64,000 nt of DNA from Lingula anatina (GCA_051362555.1 CM120648.1:17294587-17358586), one strand, 5' to 3'. Positions 4,011 through 58,767 are shown, counted from the stretch's first letter. The notes: generated by a model not told the origin, from the letters alone. A program made the numbers and translations.

Positions 4011-5325
4011 TTTCAAATTCAAACACAAAACAAAACTATTCTTTTTTTAACATATGGATTAGGCCCGACCAAAAGCAATCAAATGTCGCATCGCGGTACT
4101 AACCTCACCTCGCTCTATAATTGACATGTAACTGAGAAATAAGCCAGGTTTGCTCTGCAGGAAAGGTCACAACAGTAAAGAGGTATTGGCAAGTTGACGC
4201 CAGAATCTAGAAATGAGGCAATTAAAGCACAGGAAACCTCCGGCTGTCCGGAGCGATTTTCTTAACGCCTTCTCGAGCTGTACAGCTCTCAGCGGTGTGT
4301 TGTGAGTTATATGTAGCAGTGACAGTGTCTATTGTGAGTCAGAGAATGTGTTAACTACAAATGGGGTCTGTTTGACCTTGTTGTAGGACTGTGCCGACCC
4401 CGTCCCACTCTGTACTAAATCACAATATATTGTGCTTTTCATGAAGTCGTCGAAATAAATATAATGTAGTATTTTCACTGTAAATAGGGACCAACATGGA
4501 AAAAGTAAGGTGGGTATATTAGCACATGACGATGTTTGTAGAACCATCATTTGGCCTACAGATAAAGTTTATGGAACAACTAGATGATGCCATGCATTTA
4601 CAGCTTAAGAGTAGGTCAATACATACACTGAATTCGGGGGGGGGGGGAGCATTCATTTCAAGAACATCAGGGCCTACAAGAATCGGAGTAGCCAAACAGC
4701 CGGCATTAAATTTGACTTCTAAAAATATTTACGTCCTGGAAATTTACCAAACTTTTGTATTTTTTACAATCACGAGGGAAATATGAAGCTTATGTATCTC
4801 AAAAAGGTCGACATATAATATCATTATTGTCAACAGCTTTTGCATTTTGGCGACCAAAGAAAAAAAGCTGAAATCTGGAGAGAAATTTCTGCTACATGAA
4901 GATTTTCCTAGCGTGGTAACGGTATGCCTCTGATAAACCCACAGGTATTATATTTCACGCACGACATGCTCTCTCGAATATAAAAAGACGACTTCGTAGT
5001 AAAGAGAAAATACACAATGAAATAAGATAAGATAAGAGTTTATTTAGCCAATTATAAAAATCGGAAAACATTTTCCTTTTGGAGCAATATACAGAGTAAA
5101 ATAATAAAATAATACAATAAATAAATAAATTAGGAATTTAGTTTTGAGATCAAATTAAAATAGTTGGAGCCAAGATGCAACAGACATACTGATAGAAGAA
5201 CAGATATTTGGACAGATAGAAAGACAGACAAACAGACAGAATTGTATATATATGAAATAAGTAATAAAAAAGAACAAATCCTTGTTTATGGTGTTAAAAT
5301 GAAAGTGCTCACATATTGTACCATA

Positions 5326-18213: not shown

Positions 18214-18217
<4 letters not shown>

Positions 18218-18279
<62 letters not shown>
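18218..18279. repeat. (TA)n microsatellite
   Basis: Perfect TA run. Confidence 0.95.
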
Positions 18280-18281
<2 letters not shown>

Positions 18282-25430: not shown

Positions 25431-26114
25431 CCCCGGAATCAGGAAGCCGCGAAAATGAATATATCGTGGGTCCAGGAAAATTACCTTTTGCATAAAAACG
25501 GTATACTTAAGAATAAATAATCGATTTGAGAACAATTTATTGCTGGTCATTATCATAAAATCTGCGTCGTCAATAATATGTCCTTTCTCTTCACTAAAAA
25601 GTCTTTAAGATTATGCTTAGGCGGGGATAGTCATTGATCTCTATGTTTTACCAGCTACGCCACAGATCATGGATGTCATACTGCCCTTTCATCAACAAGT
25701 CCTATCTTCTATCAGCAAGAAGTTTTTTTTTTTTTAAGTAACCTCGGCACTATTGCTTTACCTAAACATACATTTTGTTTTTATGCCCCCTCCCTTTTTG
25801 GGCCCCTGCCTATCAAGACTGTTTGTATGGCCATATACATACCACGGGGCTGATATCTAAACAAAAGGATTGCAGGGACTGATATCATTGTTACTGCCCA
25901 ACCAACCGCATGGTTAAGTTCACACAAACAATGCTGTTAACTCGACCCGCTATCAAAAAGTGCTCGCTTTCGCTCGCACTTTATGATAGCGTGTCTCATG
26001 GTGACTCGGTAAAATCCTCGAAAAAAATCTCGCTTTTTTTCTCGAATTTTACATTAATAGTCACTGAAAACAGAAAAACAAGAAGGAAACAACGTCAGGC
26101 ATTTAATTTATATT

Positions 26115-28134
26115 TTAATGAAATTGGAAATTGCAATTCTGAAATACAACCGGCTGATTTGTTAAATCGATAAGTCTACTCAAAGAAGAATCTGTTTGTG
26201 TTACACTTTCATCACTGACGTCTGTCTGAGTGCGTATTTTCGGCGGCGTCGGACCATCATCACTCCCGTCAAGGATTCTGCTGATGTGTTGTTCCTGTTG
26301 TTCAGACGGCCGTTTACATGAACGAACGCCTAGAAACATATCCGAAAGAAACGAAATAATACTAAAGGATAATATACTGGTAAAATATGAGCCCCTTTCC
26401 CTTATAAATGAGTAAATGAAAATAACATCACAATTGATTGTAACCACAGTGCATGTTGTAAAATCTGTGCATAAACTCATTAGTACTATAAAATAAAATA
26501 ATACTTAAAAAGACATGGGGAGTGGGGATCTTCGTGGCAAAATGAATTTGCCTGGAGTCTAGGCCTACAGCAGTTGAGAGACAATTAAGAATTAATCTAA
26601 ATTATTGTGAAATTTTAGATTAATACAAAACAGTTACACGCACTTAAATTTTGCTGTCTATGTATGGTATTGATGATATTTACCTTCGACTGAACGATGC
26701 CCTGTTTTGGTCATAATTAGCTGCTCATCGACACCTCTCCGAAAGAGACGCGTCGCAGTAGTTGCCCGCAGAGAGTGGTTGGTGTAGAATCCTTTCAGGC
26801 CAGCCTTTTCACACGTTTCTCGGGTGAAGTTTGACAGGGTATTCACACCAATCGGCTGTCGACTAAACCATACGTTTTCCCGCCATTTCTGCAAAGGCTG
26901 GAGGTAAAAAGAATCGTCTCTGTTATCTTTGGGGGATAATTCCATATATTTCTTGTAAATCCTTACATGGCATCGCTACGGGCAGTCTGCGTTAGCAAAA
27001 TGGGTCACTTGCTTTGGTACTAATTTGCGATGTTTTAGGCCACCTTGACACGTTTTAGAGACGTCCTCTGAATATTTCAAATAAGCAATTTCACCTTCAG
27101 GTTCGTGGAGCGTAATTTGAGGTGATTTATATCGCAGTCGTCGATGTTCCTGTCCACCTCGTAATCCGAATTTTTTGCCATTCAAATAGTGCAGTGTACG
27201 CACGAGTACTTTGGGATTATAGTCGCCCAGCGCTTTCGATGACCACAGCTTGCTTTCATCCTCCAAAGAAATTGCTTGGGCCTTTTTGGTGTTACATCCA
27301 AGGCCAGTATGAGAAAGACGTTTCATCTCAGAATCTAATACTTGTCGGAGACCCACAAATTGATCAGAATTTAATAAATCAATCCCTCGCTTCGACTCAG
27401 TGCGAATGTAACTCTGCAGTCCCATCACAAGGGACAGGAGTGTCCTTGGAGGATATTCCGTACCGTTCTCTTTTCTCACCTCCAGTATAAATTTGGATAT
27501 CCAGTACTGAAGTTCCTCGTCAGATAGATTTGTCAGTGGTTTCTTTATTTTATTCCATTTATTAATGGCAATGTCGTTTCCTTGATAACCGTGCAACCGT
27601 GTGTTGTTTCGCGCCACTGCCCACTTATTCCATGTATTAAGTGCCCACATGTTACGACGCAACGTGTTCTTAGGTAAGCTTGCTTTTGAGCGCAACTCCA
27701 TTTCCTCATCTGTTACTGGGATAGCGAACCTTTTACTGCCATTCCCCTCCTAAAAACAGGATAATATCATAAGAAAACGCATTTTGTCAAATATGTCAAT
27801 TTTCACGTTTTTCGAAAGCAATGAATCTCATCCGTTCAAATGTCAAGGTACAAATGCATTTTGTCGTATAATTATGTAGTGGAAATACATATGGAAAAGA
27901 TAAACATAAATGAAAAATGTGTATTTTTGTTATACGCACCTTCATCTCAGCCGAGAAAGCCTGCTGCTCCTGCTGCTGCTTCGCGTCTAAATAACACATT
28001 TCTGCATTTTGACTTGCGCTTATAAGTTCGTCGTCCGAAATGTCAGAAAATTGTTGCTCAGTTTCATAATGAGATTTCTCTGCCGTTTGACTTGCGCTCA
28101 CGAGTTCGTCGTCCGATACATCAGAAAACAGCAT
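26115..28134 (-). pseudogene. Crypton tyrosine recombinase (DUF3504 / ZMYM-QRICH1-KIAA1958-like), 3 exons, ~491 codons, inactivated
   Basis: Exons 28134-27940, 27749-26684 and 26329-26115 with GT-AG introns in consistent phases (0, 1). Motifs: RFAIPVTDEE, FILEVRKENGTEYPPRTL, FGLRGGQEHR (R), NHSLRAT (HxxR), TGHRS, then GVRSCKR where Y is expected, and C-terminal FQNCNFQF. In-frame TAG at 26978-26976 (ADCP*RCHV). Confidence 0.9.
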
Positions 28135-28179
28135 TTCTGCAATGTCGCTGTCAGCTTTGCCGAAAAATGAATGAGAGTG

Positions 28180-28232
28180 ACTGCCACGTGCGGGAGATGG
28201 GCAGGAAACTGCCACGTGCGGGAGATGGGCAG
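28180..28232. repeat. Exact 25-bp tandem duplication (28-bp period) upstream of the recombinase ATG
   Basis: ACTGCCACGTGCGGGAGATGGGCAG at 28180-28204 and 28208-28232; each copy contains a CACGTG E-box. Confidence 0.9.
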
Positions 28233-28815
28233 CCAACTTCTCACAGAAAACCACTGACCCATATCTCTGCCAAAGCACACGCAACCACAAACCATTCACA
28301 CAAATGAAAATAATTGGACGGTGACCACAATTAGACAGAAACTATCGGCGTAAGCGCGGGAAAAGTCCATTCTTTGATATCACCCCATGCGCGGTGATAT
28401 CAGCGTGTTCTATTCAAAGTTAGGGGGTTTGGGTGAGGAACATGCACGATTTCCCTTAGTATGTATGACAAATAATGCACTGTTACCCCCTCGCCCGATA
28501 TCCACGATAGCATGCCTCGCTGACGCTCGGCTTGCTATCGTGGATATCGGGCTCGTGGACAGTGCATTATTTACTACATAGTACCCCAGGCATTTGAAAT
28601 GGCAAAGACTACTCAAAACTAAAACCGACAAGGTGTGAACCACTTCGAACTCTATGACGTCACAGGTGAGGTCGAACGTAATCTCAGTGTAAAACAAAAT
28701 GAAAATAAAAAAAATCTTAAGTTATCTTAATAGGAACGCTTCGGGTAGGTATATCAATAAAAGCGACTGAACTGGAATTGATTCAGTGGCTTTCCAGCCA
28801 TAACATCACGTCATA

Positions 28816-43683: not shown

Positions 43684-43831
43684 GGGCTCCGTATCTCGAA
43701 AGGTTCGCTATGTTGCGCACGTGCGCAAGTGTCTCGATTCCATGGCCCCGTATTTCGAAATAGAATCGGTTATGGAATCGAGACACTAACGCTCGTGCGC
43801 AACATAGCGAACCTTTCGAGATACAGAGCCC
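43684..43831. mobile_element. Foldback MITE, probably PIF/Harbinger-type
   Basis: ~60-bp near-perfect arms GGGCTCCGTATCTCGAAAGGTTCGCTATGTTGCGCACG... and ...CGTGCGCAACATAGCGAACCTTTCGAGATACAGAGCCC. TSD is imperfect. Confidence 0.85.
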
Positions 43832-58577: not shown

Positions 58578-58767
58578 GGGGCCGTAGCGATAGTCCGAAG
58601 GTTCAATAGTCCGAAGGTTCATTGGTCCGAATGTTCACTATAGAACCTTCGGACCAATGAACCCTTGATTAAAAAATCGATAAAAATGTTACCGCTTTTC
58701 GGACCAATGAACCTTCGGACCAATGAACCTTCGGACCAATGAACCTTCGGACTATCGAGACGCCCCC
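58578..58767. mobile_element. Foldback DNA transposon built from 15-bp tandem units, with an 8-bp TSD
   Basis: Arms of A(A/T)T(A/G)GTCCGAAGGTTC-type units and their reverse complement GAACCTTCGGACCAAT. GACTTAAT is duplicated at 58570-58577 and 58768-58775. Confidence 0.9.

Follow-up and report, generated by a model that had tools for sequence, protein, structure and literature searches.

The CryptonA DNA transposons described so far (PMC3212892; Glomhopper, PMC13465315; Eulor5/6, PMC5753468) carry one DUF3504 tyrosine-recombinase gene and neither reverse transcriptase nor DDE enzyme, occur in many copies with non-autonomous derivatives, and lack classical terminal inverted repeats. The mechanism by which Cryptons move has yet to be shown, and a 2026 review (PMC13565253), which says as much, assumes a double-stranded circle. 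Animal Cryptons are, moreover, described as being without end structure: Kojima & Jurka (2011; PMC3212892) report no terminal repeats in them, and their text contains neither 'palindrom' nor 'stem'; in the Glomhopper and Eulor5/6 papers 'hairpin' and 'palindrom' do not occur, and the Glomhopper paper states that no repeats were found. Here we analyse a stretch of 64,000 nucleotides from Lingula anatina (GCA_051362555.1 CM120648.1:17294587-17358586; the whole stretch is called the window, and positions count from its first letter) which carries at about 25837-28577, on the minus strand, what its protein identifies as a decayed CryptonA tyrosine-recombinase transposon. The element shares the CryptonA characters listed above and differs from the described elements in possessing a long 5' hairpin studded with tandem G·A mismatches and an internal mirror of its own end-to-end junction; in its relatives, insertions are unduplicated. 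A literature search with Repbase, Dfam, subscription journals and the supplements of PMC3212892 outside its scope, any of which may contain an account of the palindromes, found no description of Crypton end hairpins, of tandem G·A pairs in them or of a junction mirror.

XerCD is one tyrosine-recombinase system that acts on a folded site, the attP of CTXphi. In integrons, IntI acts on folded attC sites (PMC2727003; PMC3458562), and the likeness to the present element is that a tyrosine recombinase is paired with a structure that is kept while its sequence is free, that non-complementary positions favour one strand, and that an unpaired stretch lies beside the predicted cut; integrons exchange one strand, and the junction is resolved by replication (PMC3458562). 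In contrast, our element has neither a cassette array (none lies in the region) nor an attC consensus, it places the enzyme, with a fold nearer Cre, inside the mobile unit, and its strand marks are tandem G·A pairs and mini-hairpin caps instead of extrahelical bases; we therefore treat the resemblance as analogy, not membership. DIRS elements likewise combine a tyrosine recombinase with an internal segment complementary to the joined termini (PMC13465315), whereas the element here has no reverse transcriptase, has kept its introns, and carries, where a terminal hairpin has its base, a mirror of about 11-25 bases. IS200/IS605 and Helitron2 (PMC13565253; PMC3627910) share with it strand-specific end hairpins, asymmetric inverted repeats, the lack of duplication and a target motif on the left side only, but they depend on HUH enzymes, none of which is encoded in this element. 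Finally, DNA mini-hairpins of the GCGNNAGC/GCGNAGC type and CGAG blocks (PMC13037366; PMC10085684) are matched by both caps described below; natural mini-hairpins are known from priming sites of phages and plasmids, from N4 promoters and from one human promoter, and 'transpos' does not occur in the mini-hairpin review (PMC13037366).

The element and its two hairpins, between which the recombinase gene lies, are as follows (5' and 3' refer to the coding strand).

25837..28577, minus strand: CryptonA element, 2741 bp (from the empty-site joint, read exits and end motifs shared with relatives)
28465..28577, minus strand: 5'-terminal long hairpin from the element's first bases, with 14-bp outer arms, 24-bp inner arms and two tandem GA/GA loops
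28517..28528, minus strand: 5' cap, GA-GC-GTCA-GC-GA, a tandem GA/GA beneath a GCGNNAGC mini-hairpin (from sequence; motif class from PMC13037366)
28491..28554, minus strand: second C-GA-G / C-GA-G loop, at the foot of the 24-bp stem (28553-28554 opposite 28491-28492)
25944..25995, minus strand: 3'-subterminal hairpin with 20-bp arms, 107 nt inside the 3' end, family-specific
25964..25975, minus strand: 3' cap, GA-GC-GAAA-GC-GA, which includes GCGAAAGC (from sequence)
26009..26052, minus strand: small side hairpin adjoining the 3' hairpin, in C-GA-G / C-GA-G register

A preliminary description of the window had presented these as two Crypton end hairpins sharing a loop that can fold on only one strand. 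Its coordinates and arms proved exact (18/20 pairs on the left, 23/24 on the right, 14/14 in the outer arms), and the loops TCGCTTTCGCTC and TCGCTGACGCTC are, as it claimed, identical at 10 of 12 positions and in the same orientation. The right hairpin does stand at an end, since it begins at the element's first bases; the left one, lying 107 nt inside the other end, is not terminal in that sense. The 14-letter loop pattern, closing pair included, occurs at these two sites only in the 64 kb; with one mismatch allowed, 0.05 sites are expected and two were reached by 1 of 100 shuffles. Shuffled sequences fold much less well than either hairpin (z -5.6 to -13). Folding confined to one strand was not borne out: under ViennaRNA DNA parameters the same structure forms on both strands and only the tip differs, the minus strand being favoured by 3.2 and 2.6 kcal/mol in the complete hairpins and by 0.8-0.9 kcal/mol in 20-nt tips. 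Both caps match GCGNNAGC by sequence, each on a C-GA-G / C-GA-G block, and a much stronger minus-strand tip, through sheared G·A pairs, follows from published chemistry (PMC13037366; PMC10085684), not from the computed energies.

The evidence for a strand-specific design comes from relatives. A metagenome scan gave 75 loci encoding relatives of the recombinase, whereas viral contigs gave 114 pattern matches with no relative among them. At 36 of the 67 loci with at least 300 nt upstream, a long hairpin with a score of at least 45 lies upstream of the gene (two of the 36 belong to neighbouring elements); the alignment admits Watson-Crick pairs only and is strand-neutral. Strand bias was counted in 22 end hairpins, namely that of the window and those of 21 loci, in most cases a single representative of each nucleotide cluster that has a hairpin. 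On the coding strand their 68 two-by-two loops include 34 of GA/GA and none of TC/TC, all-purine loops outnumber all-pyrimidine ones by 39 to 2, and among single mismatches G·T exceeds A·C by 39 to 8. At least one GA/GA loop is present in 19 of the 22, and 29 of the 34 GA/GA loops have a pyrimidine before and a purine after them on the 5' arm, which is the context of sheared tandem G·A pairs (PMC10085684). The strand specificity of the G·A design, which supports the preliminary description in this respect, extends to distant relatives: across 12 clusters whose stems cannot be aligned, GA exceeds TC in 11 and the reverse is never seen. In addition, C-GNA-G or C-GNNA-G tips occur in 12 of the 22 hairpins on the coding strand and in none on the other. 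Such tips are DNA mini-hairpins, far less stable as RNA (PMC13037366), and among the well-formed caps three of five GNNA tetraloops (GTCA, GGTA and GATA) violate the RNA GNRA rule, which GAAA and GGAA obey.

Compensatory covariation, expected of a conserved structure on unconserved stems, was likewise seen in related families, stem pairs having changed on both sides at 21 of 97 and 22 of 66 positions in two groups; the latter count was approached by none of 500 shuffles and by no slid register. The idea of a fixed GAGCGNNAGCGA loop, on the other hand, failed the test that the preliminary description had set for it, the 75 related loci yielding one exact match, which is stemless. L052, the sole near match with a stem among those listed, was rejected as a further example of a capped 3' hairpin (the stem has 6 bp, and the surrounding 550 nt hold no Crypton 3'-end motif). 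What is conserved is the design and not the loop sequence: stem, GA, 2-5 bp, a tip of GNA, GNNA or CTTG, 2-5 bp, GA and stem again, with further GA/GA loops down the stem; and the end hairpin kept across relatives is the 5' one.

Flip-flop inversion is known from the 2-micron plasmid; for the hairpin of gene-bearing copies it was rejected, GA/GA never being found on the other strand. Further long hairpins with GA-type caps lie beside or inside Cryptons in either orientation (L040:3666-3985, L006:4441-4648, L013:6474-6648 and L065:2321-2393) and are probably gene-less relatives. In copies of the WLWD family (L015:4760-4821 and L045:3174-3467) the 5' end is rearranged, with a short inverted piece.

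We regard a mirror of the end-to-end junction as a stronger clue than the shared loop. It involves two further features of the element.

28454..28464, minus strand: internal mirror of the 3' terminus (9/11 bases), continuing the foot of the 5' hairpin in register
25837..25847, minus strand: 3' terminus, RTGGTA and three further bases, a form also seen in three related families

Elements of three multi-copy families start with G, fold from their first bases and terminate in RTGGTA plus three fixed bases, which are constant in every copy with a 3' end (11, 7 and 4 copies). Directly after the 5' hairpin follows a mirror of the 3' end, matching at 11/11 bases in L008, 9/11 in the window and L022, and 8/11 in L030. 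The window mirror taken alone is weak, nine matches somewhere in the first 330 nt being reached by 14 of 300 random 11-mers; it is the register that counts, and without use of position only the L008 mirror (11/11) is significant. When the ends are joined in silico, the hairpin becomes longer, with a bulge of 2-5 nt or a mismatched patch just 3' of the joint, so that the joined ends, to judge from the sequences, could pair with the mirror except for a small bubble at the joint. In three related families the fixed bases differ between the two ends, and the empty sites are unduplicated; insertion without duplication is seen at the paralogous empty sites of L005, L002 and L014 and in the tandem repeat around L023, L011 and L027 being uninformative. 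In the left flank of 23 insertions, position -3 is T or G in all 23 and position -2 is A in 17, while right flanks show weak bias only. Paired GATATC motifs lie in the 5' region (28397-28420), at a small hairpin of 10 bp (about 28374-28402), and again within the final 60 bases of the 3' end (25851-25890); they are possible further asymmetric repeats.

Considering the observed layout, strand bias, stem covariation and unduplicated insertion in relatives, we infer that integron-like transposition as a folded single coding strand is the best reading, with a probability of about 0.5. The coding strand, when single at a replication fork or on an extruded arm, would fold, the G·A pairs and cap making it, and not its complement, do so. 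The joined ends would then pair with the mirror and yield a duplex-like site with a bubble of 3-5 nt just 3' of the joint, comparable to the unpaired spacer of attC; the recombinase would cut at the joint and exchange one strand with a target whose sequence is only loosely set (K-A-N on its left side); replication would then resolve the junction, with the consequence that nothing would be duplicated. The 3' capped hairpin would be a family accessory (a possible priming or folding signal of gene-bearing copies) and not a required second recombination signal. The introns kept in the gene count against an RNA intermediate. Moreover, CryptonF shows clean excision together with copy gain (PMC9977147), a combination for which single-strand excision would account. 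A fuller version for animal CryptonA, in which the strand is chosen by G·A pairs and caps, the ends are splinted by the mirror, and, in the window's family, a single-stranded circle is primed or protected by the 3' capped hairpin, is more tentative, and we put it at somewhat less than even odds.

Several points weigh against single-strand transposition. No hairpin of score 45 was found at 31 of the 67 loci with at least 300 nt upstream, a number that includes short flanks, decayed copies, prefilter misses and real blanks (among them L053, L058, L066 and L072). The 21 loci of the bias counts were picked after their folds had been seen (L068, of score 34, and L070 included), and because the families are related by descent, the hairpin counts cannot be treated as independent. 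In one cluster (L037) the hairpin contains neither GA/GA nor TC/TC, and 10 of the 22 tips are not GNA/GNNA mini-hairpins (they are CTTG, ATTA, TTT or irregular). Computed tip energies differ by less than 1 kcal/mol between strands, and tandem GA and G·T also suit RNA. The mirror of the L016/L062 family is weak (5/11 in register). Guide-like pairing of the left flank with each family's own mirror or 3' end is not supported, as the left triplet does not follow the 3' end. TATGTA marks both junctions of the window element in every copy seen (three for the left junction and two for the right), which would also be consistent with a classical 6-bp direct repeat; host-repeat reads that lack the second TATGTA favour the unduplicated reading without being proof. 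Among the joints listed (15 of 315 in one list) there was no circle-junction or strand-switch joint, contigs being prone to drop rare forms. Additionally, the predicted structure of a relative is nearer Cre (E 1e-7) than IntI4 (E 1e-4).

The role of the 3' hairpin is a separate matter. The notion that one loop is read at both ends, with a cap needed at each, is not supported, the 3' cap being family-specific and missing from a derivative. A strict scan found no capped 3' hairpin in any of five related elements whose ends are known, nor downstream of any of 41 loci on the coding strand, and a looser scan agrees (the strict scan misses the window's own 5' cap, and its blanks lean on the looser one). 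A deletion derivative that joins 25884 to 28175 lacks it, and summed contig depth, which is not copy number, is 460 over the 3' hairpin, equal to that of the gene, whereas it reaches 2,500 in the 3' terminal bin and 9,300 at the 5' hairpin; the 3' capped hairpin is tied to gene-bearing copies of the window's family. Since capped hairpin elements are also common neighbours of Cryptons (L040, L006, L013 and L065), the 3' hairpin may be a passenger that arose by capture of part of a Crypton-type 5' hairpin and became fixed in the family, in which case the 12 shared bases would merely reflect how few sequences build such a cap. The hairpin is, however, intact, it lies on the appropriate strand, and the family contig appears to carry it unaltered: this contig (run X4) spans 25900-26124 at core depth and has three other letters in 233 nt, none inside the hairpin among the differences listed. 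A second GA-type hairpin, moreover, adjoins it (26009..26052, with 8 extra bases in the family contig). Accessory signal or passenger are close to evenly balanced, with the latter falling just short of an even chance. In the L016/L062 family (L023:2663-2920 and 5193-5222), a motif of the 5' arm recurs in direct orientation in a small 3' hairpin, which loosely parallels the cap common to the window's two hairpins.

As to the element as a whole, the strongest competitor of single-strand transposition is that a double-stranded circle recombines, as usually assumed, and that the strand-specific hairpin is a replication or copy-out signal, either a priming site or an extruded cruciform arm. In single-stranded phages and plasmids the same mini-hairpins are found at priming sites, and N4 promoters contain them too (PMC13037366); the modelled protein fold is Cre-like, Starships form circles (10.64898/2026.09.21.753150), and CryptonF targets match the element's own terminus (PMC9977147). 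Yet a double-stranded circle leaves unexplained why the mirror of the 3' terminus continues the hairpin in register, and two strand exchanges would let the overlap bases of either partner be inherited, whereas the bases after RTGGTA are constant. We consider this explanation unlikely, though clearly less so than the two that follow.

Tandem GA and G·U pairs are favourable in RNA too, the bias follows the coding strand, and the 3' hairpin lies about 120 nt past the stop codon; the structures might therefore act in RNA, the 5' end giving a small non-coding RNA (perhaps after end joining) or transcript signals and the 3' hairpin being an element of the 3' untranslated region. GNA triloops and non-GNRA tetraloops are, however, of DNA type, the 5' hairpin begins at base 1 of the element, and a search of Rfam gave no family at threshold (the best match, E 0.4, is a chance-level microRNA match). 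In line with this, though as thin evidence, poly(A) reads that cover exon 3, few in number, die away ahead of the 3' hairpin (depth from 1.0-1.75 to 0.2), and ATTAAA signals stand upstream of it. An RNA role appears improbable to us. Equally slim is the chance that the arms are ordinary duplex binding sites made symmetric by template switching, with GA/GA as bases read in sequence, for although tyrosine recombinases bind inverted repeats (PMC3212892) and palindromes homogenized by strand switching would by themselves predict compensatory change, GA on both arms makes a direct repeat and not a dyad in duplex, the GA-to-tip spacing varies from 2 to 5 bp on unrelated stems, and homogenization should erase or flip mismatches, yet none of 68 loops is TC/TC.

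A conserved strand-specific fold and a junction mirror would provide a concrete substrate with which single- and double-strand recombination are now decidable, using oligonucleotides and one purified protein. If the single-strand route is true, chemistry known from bacterial integrons and phages operates in animals, and clean excision together with copy gain is explained; there would also be a rule for locating Crypton ends and gene-less derivatives, and a bearing on the former binding targets of the domesticated relatives ZMYM, QRICH1 and KCTD1. The window itself contributes a further cap close to the 3' end, an empty site, and a derivative whose existence shows this further cap to be dispensable.

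The identification as a Crypton, made in the preliminary description, is borne out by the recombinase domains. The gene has three predicted exons.

27940..28134, minus strand: predicted exon 1 of the recombinase gene, acidic and of low complexity (splice motifs and frame)
26684..27749, minus strand: exon 2, with QRICH1, DUF3504 and phage-integrase domains (domain search)
26115..26329, minus strand: predicted exon 3 of the recombinase gene (splice motifs and frame)

Pfam matches are PF12012 (E 2.6e-16 and 2.6e-9), PF25561 (E 1.3e-16) and PF00589 (E 1.7e-9), and a scan of the five longest frames over the element against Pfam gave the recombinase as sole hit, with no reverse transcriptase, DDE or HUH transposase. 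A profile search with the recombinase returned QRICH1 first and then IntI4/Xer; the predicted structure of a relative (64-67% identical; pLDDT, the model's confidence score, 90.8) returned QRICH1, then Cre, then Tn1549 Int, IntI4 and Xer. The motifs GLRGG, HSLRAT and GHRS are present, and the catalytic R-H-R-Y tetrad is complete for the family, but not for the window copy, which is broken: it has an in-frame stop at 26976-26978, where other copies of the species have a sense codon, and cysteine at the position of the catalytic tyrosine (26316-26318), which is tyrosine in those copies. The intron after GHRSVE agrees with several relatives whose frames end at that point. The RNA reads, 53, 10 and 22 in three raw runs, stem mostly from other copies, and their number does not suffice for a verdict on expression; none was seen to be spliced within the gene. 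Seven RNA reads exit at 25843, which resembles splicing at a GT donor, and this point was not used as an element end. Duplications of 28 nt in tandem (28180-28235) and of 78 nt (27974-28128) lie upstream of the gene and within exon 1, respectively.

Other copies in Lingula anatina were seen through contigs and reads of sequencing runs. Contigs of two runs from a single study (X4 and X5) contain an empty-site joint (25830 to 28590), reads of other copies exit the window sequence at 25835, 28580 and 28583, the internal deletion derivative is seen in contigs, and contig depth is high over both element ends and low over the gene. The element is thus multi-copy, with a non-autonomous derivative and an empty site. 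Its ends at 25837 and 28577 were assigned by analogy with relatives, and an alternative parse is 25836-28580, with TATGTA at both ends. The host sequence around it (25600-25836 and 28578-28730) is a high-copy repeat, whose copy at this insertion is without about 20 bases beside the 5' junction.

Elsewhere in the window, a degenerate, self-complementary array of 30-nt and 15-nt units with high contig depth (25200-25420) belongs to another repeat family, and a long (AT)n microsatellite lies at 18217-18280. A hairpin at 58616-58663 has 21-bp arms, a 6-nt loop and no GA/GA. Another, at 43684-43831, has 64-bp arms and no GA cap; part of one arm is similar to GGTTATGGAA, with which the 5' ends of some related Cryptons begin, and the hairpin may be the end of another element.

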